Positions 23,494 through 56,715 of a stretch of DNA of 64,000 nt are shown piece after piece (position 1 is the first letter of the stretch; each line of letters starts with the position of its first letter). The notes below the pieces were generated by a model. That model did not search any database and was not told where the DNA came from. It saw only the letters and a list, made by a program, of their open reading frames with translations. Made by a program: the position numbers and the translations under genes. Origin of the DNA: Acidobacteriota bacterium (GTDB taxonomy: Bacteria > Acidobacteriota > Thermoanaerobaculia > Multivoradales > Multivoraceae); contig JAYZDP010000168.1 in the NCBI GenBank assembly GCA_036337765.1, positions 3,247-67,246 on the forward strand, read 5' to 3'.

Positions 23494-24591
23494 TCAGCTC
23501 GCGGCGCGCAGATGCGTAGGCGCACCCGAGAGTGACCACTCCGCCGTCGCCTCGGAATCAAGCGCCGATCGGGACAAGGTACCGACGGCTGCCCAAACCT
23601 CGCCACTTGTGGTGGGGGCGACGCTTGTTACTTTCCCGATCTCCTTTCCTTCCGCGGTCAGGAGGCCCGCGCCGGGGGGGGCGTCGGACCGGATCTCCAG
23701 CGGGCGGCACTCGCGAGCGGGCTTCCCGCGATAGAAGATCCGAGCGACGATCTCCTGGCCCAGATAGCAGCCCTTGGTGAAATCGACGGCCTCGTCGAGC
23801 AGCGCGGTCTCGTTGGCGACGCTGCGGTCGTCGTAGTCGACTCCCCAGCGCGCGACGCCAGCGCGGCAGCGCAGGGTCTCGAGCGCGGCCCACCCGGCCA
23901 GGGTCAGCTCGTGTCGCGCTAGGAGCTGCTCGAGAATCGGCTCCGCGATCGCAGCTGGCAGCCAAAGAACGAGCGCTTCGACGCCGTGTACGAGGCGCCT
24001 CAAGACCTGGATCTCGGTGCCGGCAAGCCGGGTCCGAACCAGGCGGTCGGTGTCGGGCAGCTCGCACATCTCCCCCAGCACCTCGGCGGCTCGGGCTCCG
24101 ACCACGGCAACGTCGAGCATGTCGTGCAGAAGGGTCACGTCAACGTCGTCGATCACCCGGTAGTGCTCGATGTGCTCCTTCATCTCAGGCGCGCGTCCCG
24201 CCGGCAGCTGAAGCCACAGCCGATCTTCGAGAACGGAGATGTAGGCGTCGGCAAGGACACGGCCCTCGCCATCGGTGAAGAAGCCGTACCGGCCACACCC
24301 CGCCTCGAGCGGCTCGATATCCGCCGAGAAGAGCCCATTGACGAGCCGAGCCCGGTCGGCACCACGCAACTCCAGTCGGTCTGCCCACGAAAGATCGACC
24401 ATCGCGCACCCCACCGTCGCGGCTTCGACCTCGGCCCTCGGATCGCCGTAGTGCAACGGCAACGAGCAGCCCCGCTCTTCGCCGACGACCACGCCCCGAG
24501 TTACATGAAGATCCTCCAGCGGAAGCGTGGCATGATCGGTGACCGCCGACATATGGCGCAGTCTAGCCGCTTCGAAGGCGGGCATTCGCAC
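23494..24591 (-). CDS. ygfZ: GcvT/YgfZ-family folate-binding protein (aminomethyltransferase fold)
   Basis: GcvT-like domain layout. Divergent from erpA, which is the usual YgfZ context. Confidence 0.7.
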   Translation of the reverse strand: MRMPAFEAARLRHMSAVTDHATLPLEDLHVTRGVVVGEERGCSLPLHYGDPRAEVEAATVGCAMVDLSWADRLELRGADRARLVNGLFSADIEPLEAGCGRYGFFTDGEGRVLADAYISVLEDRLWLQLPAGRAPEMKEHIEHYRVIDDVDVTLLHDMLDVAVVGARAAEVLGEMCELPDTDRLVRTRLAGTEIQVLRRLVHGVEALVLWLPAAIAEPILEQLLARHELTLAGWAALETLRCRAGVARWGVDYDDRSVANETALLDEAVDFTKGCYLGQEIVARIFYRGKPARECRPLEIRSDAPPGAGLLTAEGKEIGKVTSVAPTTSGEVWAAVGTLSRSALDSEATAEWSLSGAPTHLRAAS

Positions 24592-24632
24592 TGTTGCCCC
24601 GGCCAGCGAGACCCCGGTACACTTCGACCGCC

Positions 24633-24986
24633 ATGGACCCGCACTTTGACGGAGTCATCTTCAAGACCAGCTCCCAGGAGCTCGAGCGCCGGATGCGTTT
24701 CGAGCACCCTCCGTACCTGCTGATCGACGTTCGCGAGGCCGCCGAACGCTCCTCGGGATCGATCGCCGGCTCCGTAGCCCTCGATGCCGGCGGGCTAGAA
24801 GCGCTCCCCGAAGGCTCGAGCGCTTCGACCGAGTTCATCGTCGTTGGTTCCGATCAGTACGACCCGCGAGTCCGCGATATGGCGCAGCGGCTGCGCGAGC
24901 TAGGCGCTCAGCGCGTAGTCGAGCTACCCGGCGGCATGTTCGAGTGGCACGCTGCGGGAGCCGCGGTAGTCATTGATGGCGAGTGA
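24633..24986 (+). CDS. rhodanese-like domain protein lacking the catalytic cysteine
   Basis: Rhodanese-fold layout with the active-site loop reading VVGSDQYDPR (D in place of C). Start is 24594 or 24633. Confidence 0.5.
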   Translation: MDPHFDGVIFKTSSQELERRMRFEHPPYLLIDVREAAERSSGSIAGSVALDAGGLEALPEGSSASTEFIVVGSDQYDPRVRDMAQRLRELGAQRVVELPGGMFEWHAAGAAVVIDGE

Positions 24987-25004: not shown

Positions 25005-27152
25005 TCATACCGCAGCCCGCGCTCGCCTCTCCAGGAGGGCCTGCTGCGAATCTGGTGATCGCTCGTCGCTGTCGGGCACGCGCGAGTAGCTGCCGTCGGG
25101 CTCCAGCACACGAGCCTTGACCGAGTCACGCAGGTGCGTGAACAGGATCGCGTCGCGCACCTCGACAAGTAGCCTGTCGTCCTCGATCGGGAACAGCAGC
25201 TCGACGCGACCATTGAGGTTGCGAGGCATCAGGTCGGCACTACCGACGAAGACCTCCTCGTCGCCGCCGTTGCGAAAGTAGTAGATGCGAGAGTGCTCGA
25301 GGAAGCGGCCGACGATCGAGGTCACCGCGATCGTCTCGCTCACCCCCGGCACGCCGGGCCGCAGGCAACAGACGCCCCGCACCTGGAGATCGATGCGGAC
25401 CCCCTCGGCGGAGGCCCGGTAGAGAGACTGAATGCACGCTCGATCCACCAGCGAGTTGACCTTGAAGGCAATGTGGCCGTCTCCACCCGCGCGGTGACGC
25501 TCAATCTCGCGGTCGATGCGGCGCAGGATCTCACCGCGCATGTGCGATGGCGCGACCAAGAGCTTGCGATACGCCTGCTTGCGCGAGTAGCCGGTGAGGG
25601 TGTTGAAGAGCAGCGCCACGTCTTCGGCAATCGCCTCGTCGCAAGTGAAGAAGCCCAGATCGGCGTAGATCCTCGACGTGACGACGTTGTAGTTGCCGGT
25701 CGAGAGATGGACGTAGCGGCGGATACCCGAGCGTTCTCGGCGCACGACCAGGCACATCTTGGCGTGGGTCTTCAGGCCGAGCACACCGTAGACCACGTGC
25801 ACGCCCGCCTGCTCCAACGCACGACCCCATTCGATGTTCGACTCCTCGTCGAAACGGGCCTTGAGCTCTACCAGCACCGAAACCTGCTTGTTGTTCTCGC
25901 GCGCCTCCATCAGGGCCTCGACGACGGGTGAGTCCGGACCGACGCGATAGAGCGTCTGCTTGATCGCCAGCACGTCGGGATCCTGGGCCGCCTGACGCAG
26001 GAAGCTCACCACGGGAGCAAAGCTGTCGTACGGGTGGTAGAGCAGCAGATCTCGTCGGGCCACGGCCGAGAAGATGTTGGCGTCGGACGCGACCTGCGGC
26101 GGCACCGCAGGTAGGAAGGGCGGGTACTTGAGCTCTGGCGCGTCGAGGCCGCAAAGCTCTGAGATGTTCGCCAGACCGATCCGGCTGCGGGTCGCGTAAA
26201 CCTGGTGGCTCTCGAGCTCGAGGTTCTCGATCAGGATGTCGCGGATTCGAGGTGGCATCGCTTCATTGATCTCGAGCCGGATCGCGGAGCCAAAATGGCG
26301 CCTGCCTACGACCTCGGCCATGGCCGTGAGGAGATCGTCCGCCTCGTCCTCCTCGAGGTCCAGATCGGCGTCGCGGGTGACCCGAAAGGGGAAGGCAGCG
26401 ATGATCTCGAGCCCCGGGAAGAGGAGGCCGAGATTCGCCACGATCACCTCCTCGATCAGCACGAAGCCGCGCGAACCGGACCCCATCGGTCCGACCGCCT
26501 CCGGACTCTCGAGCTCAAGCTGGGGAACGGCGAGCAGCCGGGGGAAGTTTGCGGGGACCTTGAGCCGGGCGAAACGCTCGCCGTAGCCGGGATCCTCGAG
26601 TAGCACGGCGAGGTTGACGCTCAGATTCGAGATGTGCGGGAACGGGTGGCCTGGGTCAAAGGCCAGCGGCGTCAGGACTGGAAAGATCTCCGACTCGAAC
26701 CTTGCGCCCAGCGCCTCCTGCTCGGCAACGTCGAGTTCCTGCCACGACTGCACTCGAATCCCGGCCTCGCGCAGCTGAGGGCTCAGCTGCTCGATCCAGC
26801 ATCCATCGGCGAGCTCGAGCAGCGGCAGGAGGGATTCCCGGATCTCCTGCAGCTGTTCGGCCGGCGTCATGCCATCGGGAGGCGCCTCCAAAACGCCGGC
26901 CTTGAGCTGCTGTCGCAGGCCCGATACGCGCACCATGAAGAACTCGTCGAGGTTGCCGGCGAAGATCGAGAGGAAGTTCACCCGCTCAAGCAGTGGCGTC
27001 GACGGGCTCATCGCCTCCTCCAGCACCCGGCCGTTGAAGCGCAGCCAGCTCAGCTCGCGATTGATGAAAAGCGCCGGATCACTGGGGTCAGGCTTCGCGC
27101 CGAGCTCGACTGCACGCAGGATCACAGCTGTATCTTCTTTGGTCTGAGACAT
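25005..27152 (-). CDS. ppk: polyphosphate kinase 1
   Basis: N-terminal FINRELSWLRFNGRVLEEA and RVNFLSIFAGNLDEFFMVRV. PLD-like HKM motifs are present (LKTHAKMCLV). 715 aa. Confidence 0.92.
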   Translation of the reverse strand: MSQTKEDTAVILRAVELGAKPDPSDPALFINRELSWLRFNGRVLEEAMSPSTPLLERVNFLSIFAGNLDEFFMVRVSGLRQQLKAGVLEAPPDGMTPAEQLQEIRESLLPLLELADGCWIEQLSPQLREAGIRVQSWQELDVAEQEALGARFESEIFPVLTPLAFDPGHPFPHISNLSVNLAVLLEDPGYGERFARLKVPANFPRLLAVPQLELESPEAVGPMGSGSRGFVLIEEVIVANLGLLFPGLEIIAAFPFRVTRDADLDLEEDEADDLLTAMAEVVGRRHFGSAIRLEINEAMPPRIRDILIENLELESHQVYATRSRIGLANISELCGLDAPELKYPPFLPAVPPQVASDANIFSAVARRDLLLYHPYDSFAPVVSFLRQAAQDPDVLAIKQTLYRVGPDSPVVEALMEARENNKQVSVLVELKARFDEESNIEWGRALEQAGVHVVYGVLGLKTHAKMCLVVRRERSGIRRYVHLSTGNYNVVTSRIYADLGFFTCDEAIAEDVALLFNTLTGYSRKQAYRKLLVAPSHMRGEILRRIDREIERHRAGGDGHIAFKVNSLVDRACIQSLYRASAEGVRIDLQVRGVCCLRPGVPGVSETIAVTSIVGRFLEHSRIYYFRNGGDEEVFVGSADLMPRNLNGRVELLFPIEDDRLLVEVRDAILFTHLRDSVKARVLEPDGSYSRVPDSDERSPDSQQALLERRARAAV

Positions 27153-27205
27153 CTACGGAGACCTCGCGAGCCCCTCGCGTTAGCAGAACGGCCTCCTATA
27201 ATACG

Positions 27206-27895
27206 TTGATGCGGATCCGTCTTCTAGCATTCGCCAGTGCTTGTGACGTCTTGGGCACAGCGGAAAGCGGCCTCGAGGTAGCTGCGGGTAGCACGGTCGC
27301 CCAGATGAAGGCGACGATCGAAGGGAACCACCCCCGGATGGGTGCGCTCTGGGATGGCATGGCTGTGGCCGTTAACGGCGAGCTCGCCTACGACGATCTG
27401 GCGCTGGCCGAAGGCGACGAGGTCGCCCTGCTACCCCCTGTATCTGGGGGAGTCGACGAGGCACCCGTGCTGCAGACCGAGCCGATCGACACGGGCGAGG
27501 TGACGGCGCGAGTCGAGGATTCCGGCTCTGGAGCAGTGGTCGTCTTTGTGGGCAACGTTCGCGACCGTCACGCCGGCCGAGGTGTCGAGCGGATCACCTA
27601 CTCGGCCTACGCGAAGATGGCCGCCCACCGCATCCGCTCCATCTGCGCCGATCTAGAGGACCGCCACGAACGCGCCCGTATCGTAGTGGTCCATCGCCTC
27701 GGCGAGATTGCCGTCGGCGAGGCCTCTGTGGTCATCGCCGTCGGGTCACCGCATCGGGCATCTGCGTACGAGGCCAGCAGGGAGGCACTGGAGCGGCTCA
27801 AGGCAGAGGTGCCGATCTGGAAGCATGAGCACTACAGCGACGGGGAGTCCCGTTGGCGTGAGGAGGAATCGCTCGTGGCTCCCGTCACTTCGTGA
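27206..27895 (+). CDS. moaX: molybdopterin synthase MoaD-MoaE fusion (MoaX-like)
   Basis: N-terminal MoaD/ThiS fold ending LLPPVSGG, followed in-frame by a MoaE domain (VVFVGNVRD..., ...WKHEHYSDG). Confidence 0.8.
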   Translation: MMRIRLLAFASACDVLGTAESGLEVAAGSTVAQMKATIEGNHPRMGALWDGMAVAVNGELAYDDLALAEGDEVALLPPVSGGVDEAPVLQTEPIDTGEVTARVEDSGSGAVVVFVGNVRDRHAGRGVERITYSAYAKMAAHRIRSICADLEDRHERARIVVVHRLGEIAVGEASVVIAVGSPHRASAYEASREALERLKAEVPIWKHEHYSDGESRWREEESLVAPVTS

Positions 27896-29114
27896 CCTGG
27901 CCCGGCTGTCCGACGAGGCGCGACGACAATCCCGACTCGAGCGCCTGCTGGAGCAGGAAGGCGCGCCAGGCGCCCTCGATCTCCTCCCACGAGGCCCCCA
28001 ACCTGTCTTCCAGCGTCGACGCCGCGACCGACTCACCCCTCGAGACCGACTCGAGATAGCCCAAGAACGCCTGCCGCCGCACAGTCGGGCGCACGAGAAA
28101 GCGGACCAGGAGCGCGCTCTCGGCATAGTGCAGCCGCGAGCGCGGACCCCCGACGAAGGGGCCCCACTCGAGCCGGACCAACACTCCGAGCGGCACCGCC
28201 CGGCCCTCACGCTGGGTCACGAGCAGCAGGTCCAGGCCAGCCAGGCCCCCGCGCAGCTCGACGCGATTCTCGTACTCGATCTTCCCATGTGACAGATCGG
28301 CAACGTGAAGACGGCCCTCGCCATCGAGCCTGGCTGCCGCCAGGTCGTCGGCGATGCCCTCGTCGAGCCACGGCGGCAGCGCCGGACCGAGTGATCTACG
28401 GTTGAGGAGATGCGTCAATTCATGCAGCAACGTATGCCCGACGACAGCAGGATCGAGATCGCCGACGTAGAACACCACCATCCCGTATCCGGTGTGGGCA
28501 ACGCTCGCCAGATCTCGAATCCGCCCCCACTCCGCCTGCACCGCACGGTAACCCGACTCTTCTCGAAACAGTACAAGGGTCTCCTTCGCCTCCCCAACTG
28601 GCGTCAACCCATAGCGCTCTGCATACACCCGCTCGACCTGTGAGGTGATCACATCCAGATGCTCGATCAGTGCTCCGGGAGCCACGTCCGTCACCAATCG
28701 ATAGGGGCCCAACCTCGCCTCTCTCCCCCCGTCGATGAGCCTCCCAGCCGCCGCCGACAACCGCTCCGGATCCGCTTCTCGCCCGGGCAAAGGCAACACC
28801 AGCGCCGGCTCGCTCCCCAAAGGCGGTGGCCCATCGCCCTCCCAAGCGTCGTACGCCTTCAGCCCCCTATCAACAGGGGGCATATCCACGAACGACTCCG
28901 CCGGCCCGTCGAAGACCGGCGCCGGCACATCAGGCTCGGGAGGCACGAATCTCCCGCGGACGACATCGACCACCGGGCCCAAGACCGGCCAATCCACCAC
29001 CGCCTCCACTGCCCTAGAACTCGGCCAACGAGTCAGCGACGCAAACCCCACCAACAAGATCAGCACTGAGCCTATGGCGCCAAAAGAAACGAGATCTCGC
29101 CACCACCGCCTCAC
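27885..29114 (-). CDS. membrane-anchored protein with HExxH motif (putative MA-clan zinc metallopeptidase)
   Basis: N-terminal TM segment and HELTH within LLHELTHLLN. 409 aa. Confidence 0.45.
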   Translation of the reverse strand: MRRWWRDLVSFGAIGSVLILLVGFASLTRWPSSRAVEAVVDWPVLGPVVDVVRGRFVPPEPDVPAPVFDGPAESFVDMPPVDRGLKAYDAWEGDGPPPLGSEPALVLPLPGREADPERLSAAAGRLIDGGREARLGPYRLVTDVAPGALIEHLDVITSQVERVYAERYGLTPVGEAKETLVLFREESGYRAVQAEWGRIRDLASVAHTGYGMVVFYVGDLDPAVVGHTLLHELTHLLNRRSLGPALPPWLDEGIADDLAAARLDGEGRLHVADLSHGKIEYENRVELRGGLAGLDLLLVTQREGRAVPLGVLVRLEWGPFVGGPRSRLHYAESALLVRFLVRPTVRRQAFLGYLESVSRGESVAASTLEDRLGASWEEIEGAWRAFLLQQALESGLSSRLVGQPGQVTK

Positions 29115-29191
29115 GTAGAGGCAATGCTACTCCCGCAGCCACACTCCTGCCCTACCCGCCCGACAGGCGGCGCCCCTTCCCCTCCCTCCGG

Positions 29192-29303
29192 GCCTGCGCG
29201 GCGAGCGCTCCCCCGAGGGACAGCAAGACCAGCGGGGGTCGCGGTATGAACGCGCAACACCCACGACAAACCATCAAACCATGACTACCGCGGCCCCCGC
29301 TAG
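29192..29303 (-). repeat. intergenic MITE/REP-like repeat, copy A (terminal inverted repeat AGCGGGGGTCGCGGTA / TACCGCGGCCCCCGCT)
   Basis: Aligns along its whole length with the copies at 38781-38891 and 58450-58561. The 3' end CCCCCGCTAg supplies the TAG stop of moeZ. Confidence 0.7.
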
Positions 29304-30472
29304 TAGCGGAGTACGTCGGGATCGACCTCGAGACTCCACGAGTCGATGCCACCCTTCATGTTCTTCACCTTCGAGAACCCGAACTCCTGGAGCAGATGTA
29401 CCGCCCGGGTCGAACGGGGCCCGTGGTGGCAGTGGGCAACGATGAAGTCTCGTGGGTCGAGCTCACCGATGCGGTCCTGGAGATCGGCCACTGGAATGAC
29501 GATTGAGCCGTCGATACGGCAGATCTCAATCTCCTCGGGATTGCGGACGTCGAGAATCGTGATCTGATCGCCGCGATCGAGCATCTCCTTGACTTCAGTC
29601 ACTGTGATGTCGATGTCGTCGGCGCCCGCGGGCTCCTCGATCGGGATGCCGCAGAACTGTTCGTAGTCGATCAGCTCGATCTGGGTCGGATTCTCCCCGC
29701 ACACCGGGCAGTCCGGGTTGCGACGCAGCTTGAGCTCGCGGAACTTCATGCGCAGGGCATCGAAAAGCGCGAGGCGGCCGATCATAGGCTCACCCTTGCC
29801 GATGATCAGTTTGATCACCTCGTTGGCCTGCAGCGAGCCGATGATGCCAGGCAGCACACCCAGGACCCCGCCCTCGGCGCACGACGGGACGAGCCCCGGC
29901 GGCGGCGGTTCCGGGAAGAGGCACCGGTAGCACGGTCCCTTCTCTGCCCAAAAGACCGAGACCTGCCCCTCGAAGCGGAAGATTGACCCATACACGTTCG
30001 GCTTGCCCGTCAGCACACAGGCGTCGTTGACCAGGTAGCGGGTCGGAAAGTTGTCGGTACCGTCGACCACGATGTCGTAGTCCTTGACGATGTCCAGAGC
30101 GTTGGACGAGTCGAGGCGTACCTGGTGCGGGATCAAGGTGACGTAAGGATTGACGATGTTGAGCCGCTCCATCGCCGCTTCGATCTTGGGCCGGCCGACA
30201 TCGGCCAGACCGTAGAGCAGTTGGCGATGCAGATTCGACTCGTCAACCTCGTCGAACTCGACCAGGCCCAGGGTGCCGACGCCGGCCGCGGCGAGATACA
30301 TCCCGAGCGGCGAGCCAAGCCCACCGGTACCGACCATCAGCACGCGAGCGGCCTTGAGCTTCTGCTGACCGAGCGTGCCGACCTCCGGCATGATCAGGTG
30401 GCGGCTGTAGCGCCGAATCTCCTCTGGGCTCAGGTCCGGCAGGGTGGTCGTGTCGTCTTGTACGAGGGTCAT
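29300..30472 (-). CDS. moeZ: MoeZ/MoeB-type E1-like adenylyltransferase with C-terminal rhodanese domain
   Basis: ThiF/MoeB nucleotide-binding GTGGLGSP. CxxC pairs present. C-terminal rhodanese with catalytic CHHGPRS. Confidence 0.9.
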   Translation of the reverse strand: MTLVQDDTTTLPDLSPEEIRRYSRHLIMPEVGTLGQQKLKAARVLMVGTGGLGSPLGMYLAAAGVGTLGLVEFDEVDESNLHRQLLYGLADVGRPKIEAAMERLNIVNPYVTLIPHQVRLDSSNALDIVKDYDIVVDGTDNFPTRYLVNDACVLTGKPNVYGSIFRFEGQVSVFWAEKGPCYRCLFPEPPPPGLVPSCAEGGVLGVLPGIIGSLQANEVIKLIIGKGEPMIGRLALFDALRMKFRELKLRRNPDCPVCGENPTQIELIDYEQFCGIPIEEPAGADDIDITVTEVKEMLDRGDQITILDVRNPEEIEICRIDGSIVIPVADLQDRIGELDPRDFIVAHCHHGPRSTRAVHLLQEFGFSKVKNMKGGIDSWSLEVDPDVLRY

Positions 30473-30750
30473 GGGGCTCCTCCTGCGATCGACGGGATGA
30501 TCGACAGCGTATCGCCCTCGGAAACCGGCGTCGCATCCTGCTGCAGGTGGCGCACGTCCTCATCGTTGAGGAAGAGATTGACGAAGCTGCGCAGTTTGCC
30601 GTCGTCGCTGTACAGATGGGGCTTGAGCGCCGTGTGCCGCTCGACCAGGCTCGAGAGCGCCTCGCCGACGGTCGTCCCGTCGACCTCCACCTCTCCCGCG
30701 TCGCCTATGAAGCGCTGCAGGGGCGTGGGGGCATGAATCGAAATCGCCAT
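30469..30750 (-). CDS. cysO: CysO-like ubiquitin-fold sulfur carrier protein (ThiS/MoaD family) ending ...IAGG-AP
   Basis: Clear similarity to M. tuberculosis CysO (RFVNIYVNDEDVRF vs SFVNLFLNDEDVRH; ILPAVAGG vs IIPSIAGGAP). AGGAG lies 6 nt before the ATG at 30750. Overlaps the moeZ start by 4 nt. Confidence 0.8.
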   Translation of the reverse strand: MAISIHAPTPLQRFIGDAGEVEVDGTTVGEALSSLVERHTALKPHLYSDDGKLRSFVNLFLNDEDVRHLQQDATPVSEGDTLSIIPSIAGGAP

Positions 30751-30770
30751 GCAGATCTCCTGGTTTCTTG

Positions 30771-31241
30771 CTACTCCGAAGCGGCCGTTGAGACCCCTAC
30801 TCGGCGACCCGCCGCATCGAGGACGGTCTCCTCGTCGAATGCGGTCCGGTCGTCTTTGAGCCTCCAACTACGGCAGTCGGCAACCTCTCCGCTCTGCACG
30901 GAGATGATCAGGTAACTCTGTCCTGGCCAGGCGTGGTCACGGTCGAAATCACTCGGCCGCGCCGGGTGATCGGGGTGCGAATGATAGTAGCCCACGACCT
31001 CGAACTGCCGAGCCCTCGCGCTGCGCTGTGCCTCCATTAGAGCCTGGGGACTGATCAGGAAGCGATTGTGGCGATTCTCGTCCTCACGCTCGTTTCGCGC
31101 CGAGACGATCTCGACCACCTCGGCCTGATCGCCGTTACGGAGAGTCCCGATCATCACCCCGCAGCACTCCTCGGGGTAGGTCGCGCGGCCGTCCGCGTAG
31201 ATCCGCTCGATGTCGTCGTCGGTCAGTTGCAGGCTCATCAT
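30771..31241 (-). CDS. mec: Mec+/JAMM (MPN+) zinc metalloprotease
   Basis: JAMM motif E..(EECCG)...HSHPDHPARPSDFD (HxHx7Sx2D). 156 aa. Confidence 0.8.
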   Translation of the reverse strand: MMSLQLTDDDIERIYADGRATYPEECCGVMIGTLRNGDQAEVVEIVSARNEREDENRHNRFLISPQALMEAQRSARARQFEVVGYYHSHPDHPARPSDFDRDHAWPGQSYLIISVQSGEVADCRSWRLKDDRTAFDEETVLDAAGRRVGVSTAASE

Positions 31242-31735
31242 TCGTCCCAGAAACGCTCAGATAAGTACTTGTCGGCGCTGCCGCAAAGGACCGTCACGAG
31301 AGTGCCGGCCTCGATCTCACGACTGAGCGCGAGCGCCGACGAGACCGGGATCATAAATCGGCGGCACGATCGCTGTCTCCATGTGTTTCATGCCTTCCAG
31401 GCCGTGGAACGGCCCGTCCGGCTCGATGGATACGAGCCGGGCCCTCGATCCTGCTCTCTGAGCGCCTCGCGAATCGCACCGCCGAAGCCTTCCACCGGAT
31501 CAGTCAGGACCAACTCGGCACCGTACGCCGCGAGAATCCGCTTCTCGGGCGACAGCGCGCCCCGCGCGATGGCATCCTCGACCATCGCCAGACCGGGGCG
31601 GTCTTTCACCGATCCGCCGGGGTTGGTGTACTCGGCCTTGGCGAATAGCCGGACCTCTGGATTACCCACCAGGTCGACGACCCGGCACGGCCGAGGCAAG
31701 CCGCGAGAGGTGGGAGGAGTGGAGGTCAGGGCCAT
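31238..31735 (-). pseudogene. cysM: decayed remnant of cysteine synthase cysM/cysK (PLP fold-type II)
   Basis: The N-terminus has the PLP-lysine motif NPGGSVKDRP, but the TSGNTG loop region is deleted. An in-frame TGA lies at 31388-31390. The C-terminal ...LVTVLCGSADKYLSERFWDE is present. Total span is about 500 nt against about 950 nt for an intact gene. Its stop overlaps the mec start (ATGA). Confidence 0.65.
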
Positions 31736-31825
31736 GGGAGCACGGATCCTAGCAAAACGTGACCTTTTTACTAACAATTAGGAAAACGAGCGATTCCGGG
31801 CGCTGGCGGAGCTACAATCCGCTCG

Positions 31826-32473
31826 ATGGACGACACGCCCCACACCGCTGACGACAGGGTCCCTCCCGGTCAGTACGTAACCGACAAGTGGCCAGTTCTG
31901 AGCTACGGACCGACTCCCGAAGTGGATCTCTCCCGATGGCGGCTGCGGATCTTCGGCTCGGTAGCCACCGACCGAGCGCTCAGCTGGGAAGATCTCCAGG
32001 CCCTAGAGAGGACCGATCTCATCGCCGACTTCCACTGCGTGACGCGGTTTTCGACACTCGACAACCCGTGGAGCGGATTCGCCACGCGGCGCATTCTCGA
32101 ACTCGCCGACGTCGCCCCAGAATCGATCCACGTGATGATCCACTGCGCGGATGGCTACACCACCAACCTCCCCCTCGAGGACCTCCTCTCCGAACGGGCG
32201 CTCGTGGCCGATCGTCACGCCGGGGAGCCGCTGGCCGCGGATCACGGTGGGCCCCTGCGGCTGATCGTGCCGCACCTCTATGCCTGGAAGAGCGCCAAGT
32301 GGGTCTCCGGCATCGAGATCCTGGAGAGCGACCGGCGCGGTTTCTGGGAGCAGGCCGGCTACCACACCTACGGCGACCCATGGACCGAGCAGCGCTTCAG
32401 TTCGCAGGAGTTCACGGCAGCGCACCAGGTCCGGCGCCGAGCGAAGGAACTGGGCCTCAAGCTCACCTCCTAG
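31826..32473 (+). CDS. sulfite-oxidase-family molybdopterin-binding oxidoreductase domain protein (YedY/SorA-like)
   Basis: Moco-binding motif ADFHCVTRFS (HCVTxWS). 215 aa. Confidence 0.75.
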   Translation: MDDTPHTADDRVPPGQYVTDKWPVLSYGPTPEVDLSRWRLRIFGSVATDRALSWEDLQALERTDLIADFHCVTRFSTLDNPWSGFATRRILELADVAPESIHVMIHCADGYTTNLPLEDLLSERALVADRHAGEPLAADHGGPLRLIVPHLYAWKSAKWVSGIEILESDRRGFWEQAGYHTYGDPWTEQRFSSQEFTAAHQVRRRAKELGLKLTS

Positions 32474-32488
32474 GAAGCACCGCCACCT

Positions 32489-32950
32489 TCAGCGCGCGAT
32501 CTCTTCGAGCTTCTGGCGTAGCTTGGCGCGATCTTCGATGCCGCGCGCGATGATCAGGATCGTGTCGTCTCCCGCCAATGTGCCGACGACCTCTGGCAGC
32601 CCACACTCGTCGAGTGCCACAGCGACAGCGTTGGCGCGACCGCTCAGGGTTCTGAGCACGAGCAGCGAGTCGCCCGTGTCGATCTTGGTCAGGTACTGCT
32701 CGCAGGCACGGCTCAACTGCCGTTCGAGTCGCTGCTGCGAAGGGCCGCCAGTGCCAGGCGCGGCGTAGCGATAGCCGCCGCGACGTGCCGGCCGTTTGAC
32801 CAGGCCAAGGCGCTTGACGTCTCGTGAGACGGTCGCCTGTGTGACGTCGAAGCCGCGGTCACGGAGGCGCTCGACAAGCGAAGACTGGTTGGCGACAACC
32901 GAGTCCTCGACGATCTCGAGGATGGCGTGCTCGCGAGCCCGTTGGCTCAC
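32489..32950 (-). CDS. argR: arginine repressor
   Basis: N-terminal winged helix (SQSSLVERLRDRGFDVTQATVSRDVKRLGL) and a C-terminal oligomerisation/arginine-binding domain (GDDTILII). Confidence 0.9.
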   Translation of the reverse strand: MSQRAREHAILEIVEDSVVANQSSLVERLRDRGFDVTQATVSRDVKRLGLVKRPARRGGYRYAAPGTGGPSQQRLERQLSRACEQYLTKIDTGDSLLVLRTLSGRANAVAVALDECGLPEVVGTLAGDDTILIIARGIEDRAKLRQKLEEIAR

Positions 32951-45600: not shown

Positions 45601-45628
45601 TTCCGGCCTGATGGCTATCAGGCCGGAA
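45601..45628 (-). terminator. 12-bp perfect stem hairpin TTCCGGCCTGAT-ggct-ATCAGGCCGGAA at the end of the respiratory operon
   Basis: The perfect 12-bp stem with a 4-nt loop overlaps the stop of the DUF420 gene. On the minus strand it is followed by GGAGACATGTCTTTGG, a weak U-tract. Confidence 0.45.
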
Positions 45629-46037
45629 AGAGATACAGCATGGCGTAGATGATGACGCCGGTCAGTGACACGTACATCCATATAGGCAGCGTCCACCGCG
45701 CGATCGCCACGTGCTTGTCGAGCCGATCTCGTAACCCACGCACGAGAGTGACGAGAGCTAACACCGGCACCAGAACCGCAAGCGGGATGTGCGTGATCAG
45801 AATCGTCAGATAGAAGACCCGCAGCCAGCCCGTCCCAGGGTATGGCACGCTCCCGGCGTTGTAGTGGTAGACCAGGTAGGAAAGAAGAAAAAGGCACGAG
45901 ACGCCGAAGGCGGCGAGCATGCAGTTGCGATGCGCCTCCCGGTTTCCCTGGCGGATGAAGCCGTAGCCCAGGATCAGCAGCGCGAAGCTGAGCGCGTTGA
46001 GGCTCGCGTTGAGCGTCGGTAGGTCGCCGATGCTCAC
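45618..46037 (-). CDS. DUF420-family membrane protein (cytochrome-oxidase-associated)
   Basis: Four TM helices with the conserved YLVYHY and HIPLAV segments. Last gene of the cox cluster. Confidence 0.7.
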   Translation of the reverse strand: MSIGDLPTLNASLNALSFALLILGYGFIRQGNREAHRNCMLAAFGVSCLFLLSYLVYHYNAGSVPYPGTGWLRVFYLTILITHIPLAVLVPVLALVTLVRGLRDRLDKHVAIARWTLPIWMYVSLTGVIIYAMLYLFPA

Positions 46038-46067
46038 GAGTACGCTCGCTACGGTCTGACCGGTTCG

Positions 46068-46835
46068 CTACATTCCGGCGGCAGCCGCTGCTGCGGCCGC
46101 GGCCTGCGTCCGCTCGTCGTGCCAGCTCTGATAGTCCTGCTGCGACTGGATATGAAGGAAGCCCTTCATCCGGTAGTGAGTCAATCCGCACAGCTGGGCA
46201 CACGCGACCTCCGACTCCCCGGTCTGCTTGGCGACGAAGTGGACCGGAATCGTCTGGCCCGGAATCGTGTCCTGCTTCACCCGCAGGTAGGGCAAGTTGA
46301 GGCTGTGGATCACGTCCTTCGAGGTGAGGTAGAGGATGATCGGCTTGTCGACAGGAAGGTAGAGGTTGTTCAGCGTGTGGATGTCGTCCGCGGAAGCCGG
46401 ATCGTCGCGATCCAGGCCGAGCGGGTTGGCTGCCGTATCCACCAGCTCGGGAGCGGTCCGTCCCCACTCGCCGTCGGCGCCAGGATAGTGGAAGTTCCAG
46501 GCGAACTGCTCGGCGACGACACGTATGCGTTCGGACTCGTTCTCGTCAGGGAGTTCGGCGACACGCTCGTTCCACAACGGAAACGCGAAGGCGACGAGAA
46601 TGGCCACCTCGAATACGACGACTGCGACTTCGACGTACTTCGAGATCGTGCCCTTCGCGCCGTGATAGTCCGCCTTCGGGCTCGCGCCGGCTCGGAACTT
46701 GATGAGCACCAAGATGTAGTAAGCACCCCATCCAACGAAGAGGATCAGCATGACCCAGTGGATCAGGGCGATCAGGTTGTCGATCGGGGCCCCGTGAGCC
46801 GACCAATCGGGAGGAAGGTTGAGAAAGTCCTTCAT
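46068..46835 (-). CDS. coxB: cytochrome c oxidase subunit II (CuA, no fused cytochrome c domain)
   Basis: Two N-terminal TM helices and the CuA motif H...CAQLCGLTHYRM. ATG at 46835 is preceded by GGAGGA. No CxxCH. Confidence 0.9.
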   Translation of the reverse strand: MKDFLNLPPDWSAHGAPIDNLIALIHWVMLILFVGWGAYYILVLIKFRAGASPKADYHGAKGTISKYVEVAVVVFEVAILVAFAFPLWNERVAELPDENESERIRVVAEQFAWNFHYPGADGEWGRTAPELVDTAANPLGLDRDDPASADDIHTLNNLYLPVDKPIILYLTSKDVIHSLNLPYLRVKQDTIPGQTIPVHFVAKQTGESEVACAQLCGLTHYRMKGFLHIQSQQDYQSWHDERTQAAAAAAAAAGM

Positions 46836-47098
46836 CAATGGATTCCTCCGCGCAGGACCTGAAGACTCTTCTTCCGGTCCTCGCGATACTTGGCACGTTT
46901 CCGAAACTGCCAGAAGAGACTGACGAAACCGACCTGAACCAGGCCGACCACGCCCAAAAGAAAGAGAATGGCGTTGTTCATGCCCTTCGTCGCCGCGTCG
47001 TTGGGATCGCCGAAACACGCCTGGCACGCGGACGCAGTACCAGGCAGAGCAAGAACCACCACCAGGCCGAGACAAAGAGCTACTAGCACACGCTTCAT
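46835..47098 (-). CDS. small membrane protein (88 aa) between coxIV and coxB
   Basis: Signal/TM MKRVLVALCLGLVVVLALPGTASA plus a second TM. CQAC pair. Its stop overlaps the coxB ATG. Confidence 0.4.
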   Translation of the reverse strand: MKRVLVALCLGLVVVLALPGTASACQACFGDPNDAATKGMNNAILFLLGVVGLVQVGFVSLFWQFRKRAKYREDRKKSLQVLRGGIH

Positions 47099-47300
47099 CG
47101 CGGGAGCTCCTTGAGCTTGCGCCGCACACGGACGCCGTAGGTCATAAGCACGGGTACCGCCACGAGCGACAGCAACCCGTAAACGAGGCCGAGTATCGAA
47201 CCGTCTGCGACAAAGCCGCGTAGGCCCCACGATCCGGTCCCCACCGCAAGCACGGTACAGATCGTGATGAAGAGGATGTGAACAGCACCTAGAGACATGC

Positions 47301-47630
47301 TCAGTGACCCAGGCCCCAAGAGCTCCACTGGATGCTCAGCGAATCGGCGTAGCCGGACAGCGGCACCGCGATCAGGACGACAAAGAACAGGGCAGTGATC
47401 ATCAGCGTCCACATGATCGTCCGGACTTCGCCCTTCAAGTGCATGAAGAAGAGTGCGACCAACGACGCCTTCACCGCCGCGATCAGCAACGCCAGCGTGA
47501 TCGCGAGACCTATCGGAATGTCGAGGTAGCTCGCCAGGACCGTGACGACGGTCCCGACGGCGAGCGCGCCGAAAACCAGCATGTAGACCTTGACCGAGGC
47601 GCGAATCTCTTCCGGGCTGTGACCGCTCAT
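47301..47630 (-). CDS. cytochrome c oxidase subunit IV (prokaryotic caa3/aa3 type)
   Basis: 109 aa, three TM helices, typical CtaF/CoxD size and position after subunit III. Confidence 0.7.
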   Translation of the reverse strand: MSGHSPEEIRASVKVYMLVFGALAVGTVVTVLASYLDIPIGLAITLALLIAAVKASLVALFFMHLKGEVRTIMWTLMITALFFVVLIAVPLSGYADSLSIQWSSWGLGH

Positions 47631-48259
47631 CAGTGGCCTCCTCCGGCGACAACGCCAGCTCCAGGCAGGAGATAGAGGACCGGGAACAGGAAGATCCAGA
47701 CCAGGTCGACGAAATGCCAGTACAGCCCGGCCACCTCGATTCGATTAGCGAAGCGGTCCGGTTCGGTCTGAAACATCTTCGAGCCCGGCCCCCAGAGGTA
47801 GCCGTTGACGATCAGCCCGCCGATGACGTGCAGCATGTGAAGCCCGGTCAGCACGAAGTAGATGCCGAGGAAGGTCGAGTTCGCGGGAAAGTCACCGTGC
47901 GAGAACTTGGTGCCGTATTCGTAGGCCTTGATACCCAGGAAGGCAAGCGCGCACAGGCACGTGATGCCCATGTAGAGCTTGTACTTGGCGAAATCGTTGA
48001 GCTTGAGCGAGGCCCACGACATGACCATCGTCACACTCGAGGCGATCAGCACGAGGGTGTTCACGAAGGCGACTGGGACATTGAGAATGTCGGAGCCGGT
48101 CGGCCAGGCGGGAGCGGCGGTCCTGAGCAGGATGTAGGTCGAGAACAATGCTCCGAAGAGCATCACCTCGGAAGCGAGAAACAGCCAAACGCCCAGCTTC
48201 GCGTTATACAGGCCCGTTTCGGGATTCGGGTCTACGTTGTACGGGATGACGACTGACAT
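47630..48259 (-). CDS. coxC: cytochrome c oxidase subunit III
   Basis: Heme-copper oxidase subunit III fold (MSVVIPYN..., conserved W/H-rich helices). 209 aa. Confidence 0.9.
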
Positions 48260-48261
48260 CT

Positions 48262-50028
48262 TCAGGCCTCCTGTGGCTGGCTCTGCGCCGTGAAGTCCTC
48301 ATCGGAGCCCGGAGCGCTGTACTCATAGGCGGGCCGGAAGACGGTCGGGATCTTCGGAAAGTTGCCATGGCCGATCGGTGGCGACGGCGCGTCCGTCCAT
48401 TCCAGCGTCGTTGCTCTCCAGGGGTTGCCCCCGACTTTCTCGCCAGTCTTCAAGCTCATGAAGAAATTGACGATGAAAAAGATCTGCACCACTGCGAGTC
48501 CGAAGGCCGACCAGGTCATCATCTTGTTCCACACCATGACGTCCTTGGCGAACTCGTAGGTCAGCCCACCGTCGTACAGGCGTCGCGACAATCCGGCCAT
48601 GCCCTGGATGAGCATCGGGAAGAAGATGCCGTTGATGAACAGGAGGGACGGCCAGAAGTGCAGCTTGCCGAGCAGTTCCGACATCTTGCGACCCGTCACC
48701 TTCGGGTACCAATAGTAGATCCCGGCAAAGATGGCGAAGATCGTGCCCGGAGCCACAACGTAGTGGAAGTGGCCGATAACGTAGTACGTGTCGTGCAGCG
48801 GGATGTCCGACGCCGTCAGCCCGAGGGGCAGGCCGGTCAGACCGCCGATCGCGAACATGGGGAGAAACGCCAGCGCGAAGAGCATCGGCGTGTTGAAGCG
48901 AATCGAGCCGCCCCACAGCGACAGCAGCAGACACGTCAGGATGATCACCGAGGGAATGGAGATGATCATCGTCGTAGTCTGGAAGAAGGCGCTGATCACT
49001 GTGCCCATGCCGGTCATGAACATGTGATGGGCCCAGACGATGAATGACATGAAGCCGAGAAAAACCACCGAGTACACCAGTGACTTGTAGCCCCAGATGG
49101 GCTTGCGGGTGTTGTTGGCGATGATCTCTCCGACCATTCCCATGGCGGGCAGCACGAGAACGTAGACCTCGGGATGGGCCAGAAACCAGAACAAGTGCTG
49201 CCAGAGCAACGGGCTGCCGCCCCCGCTCCTGAAATCCTCCATCTCACCGCTGATCACGAGGCCGTCGGGCATGAAGAAGCTCGTGTCGACGAGGCGATCG
49301 AAGAGCTGCAGAACTCCCGCCGCCTCCAGCGGTGGGAAGGCCAGCAGAAGTAGGAACGAGGTCACGAGCTGTGCCCAAACGAAAAAGGGAAGCCGCATCC
49401 AGGTAAGCCCCGGCGCGCGCATCTGAATGATGGTGACCAGGAAATTTACGGCGCCCAGAAGTGAAGACGTGATGAGCAGGATCATTCCGAACAGCCAGAC
49501 CGTCTGCCCGTCCTCGAGGACCGATAGCGGCGGATAGGACGTCCAACCCGACCGAGCCGCGCCGCCCGGCAGAAAGAAGCTCGACGCCATCAAAAGCCCG
49601 CCAGGCAGGAAGCACCAGTAACTCGCCATGTTCAGCTTCGGGAACGCCATGTCGGGCGCGCCGATCTGAAGCGGAACCACGTAGTTGCCGAAGGCGCCGA
49701 CGAGCAGCGGAACGACAGCCATGAACACCATGATGGTGCCGTGCATCGCGCCGAGCTGGTTGTAGAACTCCGGCAGCATGATGCCGCCGGGTGCGTTGTC
49801 GGCCCCGAAGAGTCCGCCGATCGCTGGGATCGGCTTGCCCGGATACGCCAGCTGCCACCGCATGAGCAGCATCAAGCAGAAGCCGAGGAGCATGAACACC
49901 AGCGCGGTCAACCCGTACTGGATGCCGATCATCTTGTGATCCTGGGAGAAGACGTACTTCCGCCAGAAGCTCTCCTCGTGGTGCTCCTCGTGAGCGTCGG
50001 CGTGGGAGTCGGTGGTTGCAGGTTCCAT
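48262..50028 (-). CDS. coxA: cytochrome c oxidase subunit I
   Basis: 12+ TM helices, heme/CuB ligands (GHPEVY, HHMF, HFHYV). Confidence 0.95.
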
Positions 50029-50034
50029 AAGTCT

Positions 50035-50934
50035 CTATCCTCCGAGCCCTGGAACATGCTCCAGGAGCGACAGCCCGAACACGACCGGGATGTAAAGCAC
50101 CGAGCCCAAGAGCACCCGGCGAGCCGCAGACTTCGACCGATCTCTGGCGAATCCGACCGACGTCCAGAGGAACGCGAGCCCGGCGACCGTCGAGCCGACC
50201 AGAAAGATCGTCCCGCCGAAACCGAGCGACGGGGAGACCGCCGTCAGCAGGACGAGCATCACACTAGTGATGAGCATCCAAAACGAGGTCCGCCCACCAG
50301 TGCGATCGAGAACCGGGAGGATGGGGAAGCCCCCTCGTTCGTAGTCCTCTCGGTGCATCCAGCCGATGGCCAAGAAATGAGGGATCTGCCAAAAGAAGAC
50401 GATGCCGAAAAGCACCCAGGCACCGAGATCGAGTCGCCCGGCAGCTGCCGCCCAGCCGATGACGGGGGGCAGCGCACCCGGCACGGCGCCTACCAGGGTG
50501 GAGATCGGTGTCTTCGTCTTCAGCGGCGTATACAGAAAGAGATAGGAGAACGAAGTCGCGGCACCCAGCGCTGCAGCGAGTGGGTTGACCCGCCAAGCCA
50601 GAAGGAGCACCGACAGCACCGTCAGCACACTGCAGACAACGAGCACCAAACCACGATCGACACGGCCCGCCGCGATCGGTCGATCGGCGGTGCGGTCCAT
50701 GCGCGCGTCCTGGCGCACCTCGATGACCTGATTAAGCGCCGACGCGCAGCTCGCGAGGATGCCGGTCGCGACAATCGCCTCGAGCACAGCAAGGCTCGGG
50801 ACCGCCATGGGCGCGGCCAGAAACGCCCCCGCCGCCATGGTGATCAACACCATCAGCGTGATGCGAGGTTTCGTCAACTCGCTGAGGTCGCTCCAACCGA
50901 CCTCGTGGCTCATCTGCGCAGCTCCGGCTTTCAT
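50035..50934 (-). CDS. ctaB: protoheme IX farnesyltransferase (heme O synthase)
   Basis: UbiA-family polytopic protein. N-terminal LTKPRITLMVLIT. Confidence 0.9.
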   Translation of the reverse strand: MKAGAAQMSHEVGWSDLSELTKPRITLMVLITMAAGAFLAAPMAVPSLAVLEAIVATGILASCASALNQVIEVRQDARMDRTADRPIAAGRVDRGLVLVVCSVLTVLSVLLLAWRVNPLAAALGAATSFSYLFLYTPLKTKTPISTLVGAVPGALPPVIGWAAAAGRLDLGAWVLFGIVFFWQIPHFLAIGWMHREDYERGGFPILPVLDRTGGRTSFWMLITSVMLVLLTAVSPSLGFGGTIFLVGSTVAGLAFLWTSVGFARDRSKSAARRVLLGSVLYIPVVFGLSLLEHVPGLGG

Positions 50935-50994
50935 CTCCCGTCCAATCGATCAAACGCGCGGAGGCGATCCGATCGCCCCCGCACCGTTAGTTCA

Positions 50995-56694: not shown

Positions 56695-56715
56695 GCTCGC
56701 CCCGATCTCGCGCCG

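Follow-up and report, generated by a model that had tools for sequence, protein, structure and literature searches.

A predicted protein-thiocarboxylate sulfur-transfer locus with a decayed cysM gene in an acidobacterium of the class Thermoanaerobaculia

The window considered here is the whole stretch of DNA that was analysed, 64 kb in length. Its interval 27206-32473 contains genes for a MoaD-MoaE fusion, an E1-like protein MoeZ, a CysO-like sulfur carrier, a JAMM protease and a sulfite-oxidase-fold molybdoenzyme, as well as the remnant of a cysM gene. The sequence-only reading had assigned these module genes to one locus, and all of them were recovered at the coordinates given below, with domain matches far beyond chance. 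The order cysM-JAMM-cysO-moeZ is retained across 80 related loci of Thermoanaerobaculia and Acidobacteriota.

The moaD-moaE fusion (27206..27895, forward strand, 229 aa) is a MoaX-like molybdopterin synthase precursor. As had been proposed, MoaD is in frame with MoaE: one ORF contains both a ThiS/MoaD domain (Pfam, aa 9-82, E 1e-13) and a MoaE domain (aa 89-201, E 1e-34). Translation probably begins at the ATG at 27209. The MoaD part (aa 1-82, 27206-27451) ends with Gly81-Gly82, encoded at 27446-27451, and is followed by a short linker, VDEAPVLQ, and then by MoaE up to the C-terminus. The junction LLPPVSGG/VDEAP aligns with IPQVAGG/SD of M. tuberculosis MoaX (PDB 9jbd). The gene lies outside the JAMM operon, about 3 kb from the JAMM gene, and was observed within the fetched flank in 27 of the 66 related loci having enough downstream sequence. 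MoaD and MoaE are fused wherever they were seen, and the fusion with LLPPVSGG and the linker is kept in at least 27 loci.

The gap between moaDE and moeZ is occupied by a gene that the sequence-only reading did not mention (27885..29114, complementary strand). Its 409-aa product has an N-terminal membrane anchor and an HExxH motif (HELTH). It has a weak Pfam match to Peptidase_MA_2, below the cutoff, and no match in the NCBIfam search. The gene is found at the same position in only 5 of the 80 related loci and probably does not belong to the system.

The moeZ gene (29300..30472, complementary strand, 390 aa), identified with Pfam and NCBIfam, encodes an E1-like adenylyltransferase (ThiF, E 5e-82) with a C-terminal rhodanese domain (E 3e-18). 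The protein carries two CxxC motifs (CYRC and CPVC) and the rhodanese loop CHHGPRS. It scores 458 bits with the NCBIfam MoeB model PRK08762 (cutoff 449) and 490 bits with the MoeZ model PRK07878, and its nearest solved structures are Uba4 and MoeB.

The cysO-like gene (30469..30750, complementary strand) encodes a 93-aa ubiquitin-fold carrier of the ThiS family (Pfam, E 4e-13). It matches over its full length the ThiS/MoaD family protein 4n6e_B of A. orientalis and CysO of M. tuberculosis (3dwg_C, with a C-terminal GG), and its GG, encoded at 30478-30483, aligns with the C-termini of both. An identical protein is named 'ubiquitin-like small modifier protein 1' in NCBI. The GGAP terminus noted previously is present (SIAGG-AP followed by the stop), and so is the 4-nt overlap with moeZ (30469-30472), the partner gene being cysO and not the JAMM gene: the stop codon TGA (30469-30471) shares the sequence ccATGA with the ATG of moeZ (30470-30472). 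However, the tail is not a special feature, as had been supposed, but the norm of the family. None of the 120 closest database homologues ends at GG, and all have tails of 1-38 residues. The last residue is in many cases R, or one whose codon likewise has A in third place, which is what an xxA-TGA overlap with the moeZ start would give.

Among 79 related loci, CysO and MoeZ are fused in frame in 63 and split in 15, and one locus lacks CysO; the 4-nt overlap is common to at least 11 of the split loci. ThiS, ThiF and Rhodanese domains are indeed found together in single ORFs of relatives (Pfam). Fused, split and CysO-less loci are interleaved on the MoeZ tree, which indicates repeated fusion and fission. 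One-nucleotide changes at the ATGA would repeatedly convert lineages from separate genes with a short CysO tail to an in-frame fusion of CysO and MoeZ, and back again. Since all closest homologues are tailed and fusion to MoeZ prevails, the AP tail is a by-product of the overlap and not an adaptation. Of the features to be compared with related genomes, the gene order and the GG junction of MoaD-MoaE are retained, whereas in place of a common GG-AP end CysO has varying tails and is mostly fused to MoeZ. The papers searched contain no description of this CysO-MoeZ fusion, dominant in the relatives.

The JAMM gene (30771..31241, complementary strand) encodes a Mec+-like JAMM/MPN+ metalloprotease of 156 aa, or 155 aa from the second ATG (Pfam Prok-JAB, E 3e-27). 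The motif E...HSHx7SxxD is intact; PEECCG provides the catalytic Glu, and HSHPDHPARPSDFD is present as well. The best solved relative is the MPN protein 2kcq of Salinibacter ruber (6e-25). The gene ends 20 nt upstream of cysO, in agreement with the adjacency reported previously. In loci recovered with both flanks, its neighbours are cysM on one side and cysO/moeZ on the other, with three exceptions: L071 and L077 have no cysM, the latter having no cysO either, and in L010 the CysO-MoeZ ORF begins about 1.7 kb downstream of the JAMM gene. In some relatives (L057, L062, L073) a second JAMM paralogue adjoins cysM.

The suggestion that both carriers are blocked at GG and need proteolytic release extends to the whole clade, as shown by the CysO tails and fusions and by the fusion of MoaD to MoaE in every case seen. 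It is plausible that one JAMM protease serves both CysO and MoaD-MoaE. The persistence of JAMM and MoeZ in L071 and L077 fits an additional service to MoaD-MoaE. This link is circumstantial, as moaDE lies outside the JAMM operon and is seen in the flank of a minority of loci. The rest of the genome, beyond the 64-kb window, may encode another JAMM protein, a MoeB distinct from MoeZ, unfused MoaD and MoaE, or a further cysteine synthase (cysK).

The module was said to be flanked by a molybdenum cofactor-dependent oxidoreductase, and such a gene is present at 31826..32473 (forward strand, 215 aa; Pfam Oxidored_molyb, E 2e-40), divergent from the cysM operon. It encodes a small cytoplasmic protein of the sulfite-oxidase fold consisting of the cofactor domain only, with no signal peptide, dimerisation domain or haem domain. 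Its matches to the solved plant sulfite oxidase and to YedY are weak; the molybdenum ligand Cys71 aligns. The gene is found in 55 of the 80 related loci, in 42 of them divergently beside cysM.

The cysM pseudogene (31238..31777, complementary strand) was delimited by tblastn with the intact CysM of L001 and by nucleotide alignment with L001-L003. About 420 nt are missing due to several deletions and frame changes: three deletions keep the frame (36, 114 and about 177 nt), another removes 107 nt, and a 1-nt frameshift leads to a stop at 31388. The remnant keeps the PLP-lysine motif GGSVKDRP and about 35 C-terminal codons; the TSGNTG and GTSGT loops are lost, as is the GVSAG region. The overlap of its TGA (31238-31240) with the start of the JAMM gene has survived. 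With at least five lesions and a Pfam PALP score of 31 bits, below the cutoff of 35, the gene is dead, as the sequence-only reading had it. On the other hand, of the 78 related loci with a cysM ORF match, 77 have an intact gene, among them the nearest ones, L001-L003, and thus its loss in the window is lineage-specific. Independent losses occurred in L071, where CysO is kept, and in L077, where it is gone too. CysM of the relatives is equally similar to CysM of E. coli and of M. tuberculosis, and hence its substrate and dependence on CysO are assigned from context only.

The protein-thiocarboxylate pathway of cysteine synthesis with CysO, CysM and Mec+ was reportedly described in M. tuberculosis by Burns et al. 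in 2005. The two systems share a clustered carrier of the ThiS/MoaD fold with GG, a JAMM hydrolase, a PLP enzyme of the CysM type and a rhodanese domain on the E1. MoeZR of M. tuberculosis is the sulfurating enzyme for MoaD as well as for CysO, and Mec+ acts as the hydrolase of CysO-Cys (PMC3227635). The differences are that moeZ is inside the operon here and elsewhere in M. tuberculosis, that CysO of M. tuberculosis ends exactly at GG, and that only a pseudogene of cysM remains in the window. The gene set is exactly that of operon class 4c of Iyer, Burroughs & Aravind 2006, ThiS/MoaD with E1-rhodanese, JAB and cysteine synthase, a class known since that paper from Acidobacteria (Solibacter), Salinibacter and Chloroflexus, among others; the same authors predicted JAB release of fused or extended ThiS/MoaD carriers (PMC1779556). 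Their Ubl-ThiF fusions involve a different Ubl family and are accompanied by a second, solo ThiS (PMC1779556).

The carriers themselves have several counterparts. In Wolinella, the precursor HcyS-Ala is paired with the JAMM protein HcyD. In PMC5925218, QbsD is cited as the trimmer of the CF tail of QbsE (thioquinolobactin), and the same role is proposed for CxnF on CxnE with its 10 additional residues (chuangxinmycin). In all three pairs residues extend beyond GG, and their removal ahead of activation by the E1 is attributed to a neighbouring JAMM protein. However, these systems feed secondary metabolites or methionine, whereas the context here is cysteine synthase and molybdenum cofactor, and the tail arises by overlap or fusion with the E1 gene. 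MoaX (Rv3323c) requires cleavage after Gly82 (PMC4326299), and the D. radiodurans JAMM protein DR0402 cleaves the MoaD-MoaE fusion DR2607 (PMC8832034). As in the window, both are single polypeptides of MoaD and MoaE joined at GG. For the fusion in the window, the candidate protease is the JAMM protein of the cysO operon.

Taken together, the interval likely represents the standard protein-thiocarboxylate sulfur-transfer neighbourhood of Thermoanaerobaculia, with an architecture normal for the lineage, in which cysM has since decayed. It would consist of an operon cysM-mec-cysO-moeZ for making cysteine through CysO, as in M. tuberculosis, and a nearby MoaX-like moaD-moaE for molybdopterin, the divergent molybdoenzyme using the cofactor. 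CysO-AP and MoaD-MoaE would be synthesised as precursors, and the JAMM protease would cleave behind Gly-Gly to give the free carboxylate. The ThiF domain of MoeZ is predicted to adenylate it, and the rhodanese persulfide to convert it to the thiocarboxylate. MoaD-COSH together with released MoaE would then make molybdopterin. In relatives, CysM may condense CysO-COSH with a serine derivative, the CysO-Cys adduct being hydrolysed by the JAMM protein.

One possibility, raised by the sequence-only reading, is that CysO, JAMM and MoeZ were re-purposed after the death of cysM, the CysO thiocarboxylate now feeding homocysteine/methionine synthesis, tRNA thiolation or the adjacent molybdoenzyme. Indeed, all three genes are intact beside the heavily damaged cysM, and L071 likewise retains CysO. 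In a second sample the CysO protein is identical despite differences at 4 of 1356 DNA positions, three of them third codon positions and one a silent change within cysO, and so CysO could still be in use. However, intact cysM accompanies the same CysO in the closest relatives, the very finding that the sequence-only reading had named as speaking against its proposal; the ancestral function is thus ordinary CysO-dependent cysteine synthesis. Acceptor genes (ThiG, MetY/HcyF-like, TtuA-like) were sought in the 64-kb window and none was found, L077 lost cysO along with cysM, MoaD-MoaE would account for the retention of JAMM and MoeZ, and a 93-codon gene overlapping moeZ can persist for long by chance. 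Re-purposing is therefore unlikely.

Less likely still is a locus mainly for ubiquitin-like conjugation, with a SAMP/TtuB-like modifier, MoeZ as E1 and JAMM as the deconjugating enzyme. The NCBIfam SAMP1 model gives 65 bits with CysO (cutoff 60), consistent with the NCBI name, and the desampylase model matches JAMM at 78 bits, under its cutoff of 130. The archaeal SAMP1/UbaA/HvJAMM1 system, after which the NCBI models label the proteins of the window, has the same folds and motifs and a link to MPT synthase, which SAMP1 and HvJAMM1 are reported to regulate (PMC4443979). However, it performs protein conjugation, its UbaA is not fused to a rhodanese and cysM does not accompany it, whereas here the gene shares an operon with cysM in 77 relatives, the matches of CysO to 4n6e_B (2e-15) and to CysO of M. 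tuberculosis (7e-14) are closer than that to SAMP1 (1e-8), no E2- or E3-like gene is present, and the E1 has the rhodanese domain tied by Iyer et al. to sulfur-transfer and not conjugation operons (PMC1779556). The least credible reading takes the damage to cysM for an error of assembly or binning, the organism itself having an intact cysteine pathway: the contig is metagenome-assembled and several clean internal deletions amid well-preserved flanks are unusual, but in an independent Logan assembly of another run the called gene likewise stops exactly 150 nt upstream of JAMM, the deletions are away from long repeats, the one bounded by an 11-nt direct repeat (GCGGATyCT, two KRIL motifs) is typical of slippage, the flanking genes are perfectly in register, and two other lineages have really lost cysM at the same spot.

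The operon type, tail trimming by a JAMM protein (QbsD) and JAMM cleavage of MoaD-MoaE (DR0402) have already been published (PMC1779556, PMC5925218, PMC8832034), and the decay of cysM is the sole unusual feature of this gene cluster. As cysM was destroyed by several deletions, the cysteine branch of the sulfur-transfer system is broken in this genome. JAMM and MoeZ would remain under selection because they are needed for molybdopterin synthesis, and CysO is most probably a leftover that has not yet been lost.

On the minus strand of the window, moeZ (29300-30472), cysO (30469-30750), a JAMM protease gene (30771-31241) and a cysM remnant (31238-31777) follow each other with junctions that overlap or span 20 nt. 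The locus falls into class 4c of the operons sorted by Iyer, Burroughs and Aravind (2006). Such operons, recorded earlier in Acidobacteria too (PMC1779556), combine a ThiS/MoaD-like Ubl with a rhodanese-bearing E1, a cysteine synthase and a JAB peptidase; in the window the cysteine synthase is decayed. The M. tuberculosis counterpart of this operon is the CysO/CysM/Mec+/MoeZR pathway (PMC3227635), and a MoaX-type fused MPT synthase stands beside the window operon as well. ORF listing and profile searches place the moaD-moaE fusion at 27206-27895 (plus strand), with ppk (25005-27152, minus strand) before it, and on the other side of the operon a gene for a 215-aa Oxidored_molyb protein (31826-32473, plus strand), followed by argR-argH-argD-argB-argJ (from 32489, minus strand). 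The sequence-only reading had described this gene set, with a Gly-Gly at the MoaD-MoaE junction, a CysO ending in GG-AP and overlapped by 4 nt by moeZ, a dead cysM and a flanking sulfite-oxidase-like Mo enzyme. Every particular was borne out by ORFs, profile matches and alignments, the last one at the level of fold. A search of the whole 64-kb window (65% G+C) found no further cys, moa or thi genes. A promoter and terminator scan of positions 27000-32600 gave one promoter-like site (31379-31350, minus strand, in the cysM remnant), which is chance level (one observed against 0.8 expected).

The carrier matches Pfam PF02597 (E 3.8e-13, aa 11-91), and its 93 residues align over their full length with M. 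tuberculosis CysO (3dwg_C, 7e-14) and with a ThiS/MoaD family protein of A. orientalis (4n6e_B, 2e-15). The Gly-Gly at aa 90-91 is not terminal: Ala-Pro follows, two residues beyond the C-terminal GG of the aligned proteins, and trimming is therefore needed. The cysO stop and the moeZ start share ccATGA, and the tail proline reflects this CCA-TGA codon context. The same is seen widely. All 120 best CysO homologues in a database of 5.8 billion proteins (60-100% identity) have tails of 1-38 residues, and none of these 120 ends at GG. Tails ending in R are the most frequent (AR 21 times, GGR 7 times among the same 120), as an xxA-TGA overlap with the downstream ATG would yield. Thus C-terminal tails are the rule for CysO-type carriers of the clade, and they originate from gene overlap or fusion with the E1.

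MoeZ has ThiF (E 5e-82, aa 22-257) and Rhodanese (E 3e-18, aa 290-380) domains, both CxxC motifs (CYRC, CPVC) and the rhodanese CxxGxR loop CHHGPRS. It scores 490 bits with the NCBIfam MoeZ model PRK07878, under the equivalog cutoff of 647, and 458 bits with the MoeB model PRK08762, over the cutoff of 449. The JAMM protein matches Prok-JAB (E 3e-27), and its translation contains the complete zinc motif E...HSHx7SxxD (PEECCG ... HSHPDHPARPSDFD). The 156-aa sequence has no exact database match, and gene callers start at the second ATG (155 aa). The gene ends 20 nt ahead of cysO. By analogy with published systems (PMC8832034, PMC5925218, PMC3227635), the adjacent JAMM would be the obvious enzyme for cleavage after the carrier GG, whether a tail, a fusion or a Cys adduct is removed. 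The JAMM QbsD is cited as stripping CF from QbsE, and CxnF has been proposed to strip a decapeptide from CxnE (PMC5925218). In three related loci a second, divergent JAMM paralogue is found directly upstream of cysM (L057 4474-4962, L062 4553-5032, L073 4206-4919). These copies are 31-38% identical, and the one scanned, that of L057, matches Prok-JAB with E 1e-7. There may be a division of labour between the two proteases in these loci.

The moaD-moaE ORF encodes one polypeptide, in which a ThiS/MoaD domain covers aa 9-82 (E 1e-13) and MoaE follows at aa 89-201 (E 1e-34). At the junction, LLPPVSGG|VDEAP lines up with IPQVAGG|SD in M. tuberculosis MoaX (PDB 9jbd), and fusion with LLPPVSGG and a variable linker is retained in every locus having the gene inside the flank (at least 27 relatives). 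MoaX must be cut after Gly82, by a protease not identified (PMC4326299), and the D. radiodurans JAMM DR0402 cuts its own MoaD-MoaE fusion, DR2607, and is required for MPT synthesis (PMC8832034). The window fusion shares with MoaX and DR2607 the one-polypeptide architecture and the GG junction; for those two, activity has been shown to need cleavage after the second Gly. The candidate cleavage sites of the two window carriers are alike (IIPSIAGG|AP in CysO, LLPPVSGG|VD in MoaD-MoaE), and a single JAMM common to both would be plausible and has precedent.

The 215-aa Mo enzyme contains the SUOX-fold domain PF00174 (E 1.9e-40). Its Cys71 aligns with the Mo-ligand cysteines of plant sulfite oxidase and YedY. 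The protein lacks a signal peptide, a dimerisation or haem domain and any other second domain, and the scores with the SorA, SoxC and MsrP equivalog models are far under the cutoffs. "Sulfite-oxidase-like" is a description of fold only.

Several other genes of the neighbourhood were recorded. The gene at 27885-29114 (minus strand) encodes a 409-aa protein with an N-terminal membrane anchor and a HELTH (HExxH) zinc-protease motif, whose sole family match, Peptidase_MA_2, is sub-threshold; it is convergent on moaD-moaE, overlapping its 3' end by 11 nt. As a candidate MoaD-MoaE protease this protein was rejected, given the anchor, the sub-threshold match and a position kept only in L001-L003, the three loci nearest to the window, and in the related loci L061 and L068 (5 of 80). 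A stand-alone 130-aa rhodanese-homology protein (24594-24986, plus strand), with homologues near moaD-moaE in L002 and L003, is probably inactive, because its active-site loop VVGSDQYDPR has no catalytic cysteine. A GCV_T/YgfZ-like folate-binding protein is encoded near moeZ and moaD-moaE in the window (23494-24591, minus strand) and also in distant relatives such as the locus L004 (8668-10296, minus strand), where a protein with an Fe-S_biosyn (IscA-like) domain follows moaD-moaE. Farther away, 1095-4583 (minus strand) encodes a 1162-aa protein that combines glutamine amidotransferase and SIS domains; it is roughly double GlmS in length, and large regions lack any family match. A respiratory cluster at 45618-57246 (minus strand) contains DUF420, cytochrome oxidase subunits IV, III and I, a UbiA-family (haem O synthase-like) protein, a 976-aa multihaem cytochrome c, a Rieske protein and a split cytochrome b, which makes an aerobic or microaerobic way of life probable for the organism.

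The lesions of cysM were located in a tblastn search, for which the nearest relative supplied an intact CysM as query, and in a nucleotide alignment with three relatives. The remnant retains the N-terminal part with the PLP lysine (GGSVKDRP) and the last 35 codons, plus, in a different frame, the block IEPDGPFHGLEGMKHMETAIVPPIYD. Three deletions (36, 114 and about 177 nt) are in frame; a 1-nt frameshift leads to a stop at 31388, and a 107-nt deletion brings the frame back. Nothing is left of the TSGNTG substrate loop, the glycine loop or the GVSAG region. The 114-nt deletion (31510-31545, minus strand) is bounded by an 11-nt direct repeat, AAGCGGATyCT, whose KRIL is coded twice in intact relatives. 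Such a boundary is the textbook outcome of slippage, and the repeat is too short for assembler collapse. A metagenome scan with a 24-mer for this junction gave a single match, in an unrelated organism (L082, 74% identity over 73 nt); since the deletion lies between direct repeats, the junction is not distinguishable from the normal downstream repeat. An independent Logan assembly (run SRR22804949) contains an identical CysO, and there, as in the window, the upstream gene ends exactly 150 nt ahead of JAMM. Over the 1356 nt of JAMM-cysO-moeZ, an ENA scaffold shows 99.7% identity. Given the short slippage repeat and the agreement of both assemblies, the pseudogene is regarded as real, with slight residual doubt.

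The closest relatives of the window are Thermoanaerobaculia MAGs. A scan of the genome collection with the JAMM protein yielded 80 loci (49-71% identity), all from Acidobacteriota and nearly all from Thermoanaerobaculia, which were examined by scripted ORF and BLAST analysis. The order argH-argR-[Mo enzyme, opposite strand]-cysM-JAMM-cysO-moeZ is conserved; the Mo enzyme gene is present in 55 loci and is divergent from and adjoining cysM in 42. Full-length cysM with all three motifs was found in 77 of the 78 loci having a cysM ORF match, the exception being cut by a contig end. It was not possible to assign these CysM proteins to the O-phosphoserine-specific type by sequence, as they are equally close to E. 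coli and M. tuberculosis CysM.

Of the 79 loci whose MoeZ is near full length, 63 have CysO joined to it in frame by an Ala/Pro-rich linker of 10-40 aa after the GG. These ORFs of about 483-491 aa (for instance, L004 6493-7950 and L042 6468-7928) contain the Pfam domains ThiS, ThiF and Rhodanese together. Where the two genes are split (15 loci), CysO extends past the GG every time (GGGGAR, GGRVR, GGGLR, GGAR, GGGR and others), and at least 11 of them have the 4-nt cysO/moeZ overlap. On a neighbour-joining tree of MoeZ fused and split states are interleaved, the window lying with L001-L003 in an all-split clade; the switch has therefore happened many times, and the tree implies repeated 1-nt changes at the ATGA overlap. 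A limited literature search found no description of a CysO-MoeZ fusion, nor of a linear Ubl-E1 precursor requiring JAMM cleavage; Ubl-ThiF fusions of another Ubl family are already known (PMC1779556).

Two further loci have lost cysM. L071 (5765-6001) retains about 30 C-terminal cysM codons and keeps JAMM-cysO-moeZ. In L077 (5814-6453) both cysM and cysO are gone, and the JAMM gene is kept, directly overlapping moeZ. These loci are sister neither to the window nor to each other, and the three losses are independent. In both cysM-less loci with a remnant, the last 30-35 codons of cysM persist up to the JAMM start (window 31241-31345, L071 5888-5991), which suggests that this stretch carries translation-initiation or promoter signals for JAMM.

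The sequence-only reading had held that both carriers need proteolytic processing. The related genomes agree with this: MoaD-MoaE is fused in every locus having it inside the flank, and tails are present in all 120 best CysO homologues. Blocked termini are a property of the whole clade and imply obligatory cleavage after GG. The persistence of JAMM-MoeZ after the loss of cysM and even of cysO, the best comparative clue available, hints at another client that the pair must serve, in the simplest case MoaD-MoaE. Tentatively, as a possible rather than a probable reading, all ubiquitin-fold sulfur carriers of Thermoanaerobaculia would be pro-proteins, a single JAMM serving as the obligatory maturase of the cysteine and Moco branches and as the CysO-Cys hydrolase, and JAMM-MoeZ forming the stable core. 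In such a scheme MoaD would be held by its fusion to MoaE and CysO, usually, by its fusion to the N-terminus of its own E1, MoeZ; CysO would flip repeatedly to the split, tailed form by 1-nt changes at the ATGA overlap; and the core would outlive the loss of cysM (window, L071) and of cysO (L077).

It had also been proposed that the death of cysM led to re-purposing of the CysO arm. This we consider unlikely. The window CysO is intact, and the four SNPs relative to a second sample comprise three at third codon positions and one conservative Met-to-Leu change in JAMM, so continued use of CysO is conceivable; dN/dS on cysO would be uninformative, since a gene of 93 codons whose protein differs by about 30% from that of its nearest relative at DNA level would be saturated. 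However, in close relatives the same CysO stands beside an intact cysM, there is no alternative acceptor gene within the 64 kb, and one lineage that lost cysM, L077, lost cysO too. Less likely still is a SAMP-like conjugation role, suggested by the SAMP1 model (65 bits, cutoff 60) and by the name "ubiquitin-like small modifier protein 1" that the NCBI pipeline took from it for the window carrier (P0001, 30469-30750), as the E1 has a rhodanese domain, unlike the UbaA type, the genes lie in a cysM setting and the matches in the PDB speak for CysO. Annotators should be warned that, with cysM in the operon of relatives, this name probably misleads on these bacterial genes.

Published concepts cover the gene set, the fused MPT synthase, the tails and JAMM processing, and the window adds a new member with decayed cysM. 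By itself it is of little weight, being a well-conserved and already classified operon type next to a known kind of fused MPT synthase, with one gene recently dead. What the relatives offer is more interesting: the dominant linear CysO-MoeZ fusion, its repeated fusion and fission, and the loss series. The hypothesis of a shared maturase is directly testable with three substrates, CysO-AP, CysO-linker-MoeZ and MoaD-MoaE. The natural series from the intact operon through the cysM pseudogene and the cysM deletion to the deletion of both cysM and cysO suggests that JAMM and MoeZ are the pair that cannot be spared, probably on account of Moco synthesis. If the joint reading is true, a linear Ubl-E1 precursor, cut by JAMM before the E1 activates the Ubl, would be a bacterial parallel to the eukaryotic ubiquitin-fusion precursors.
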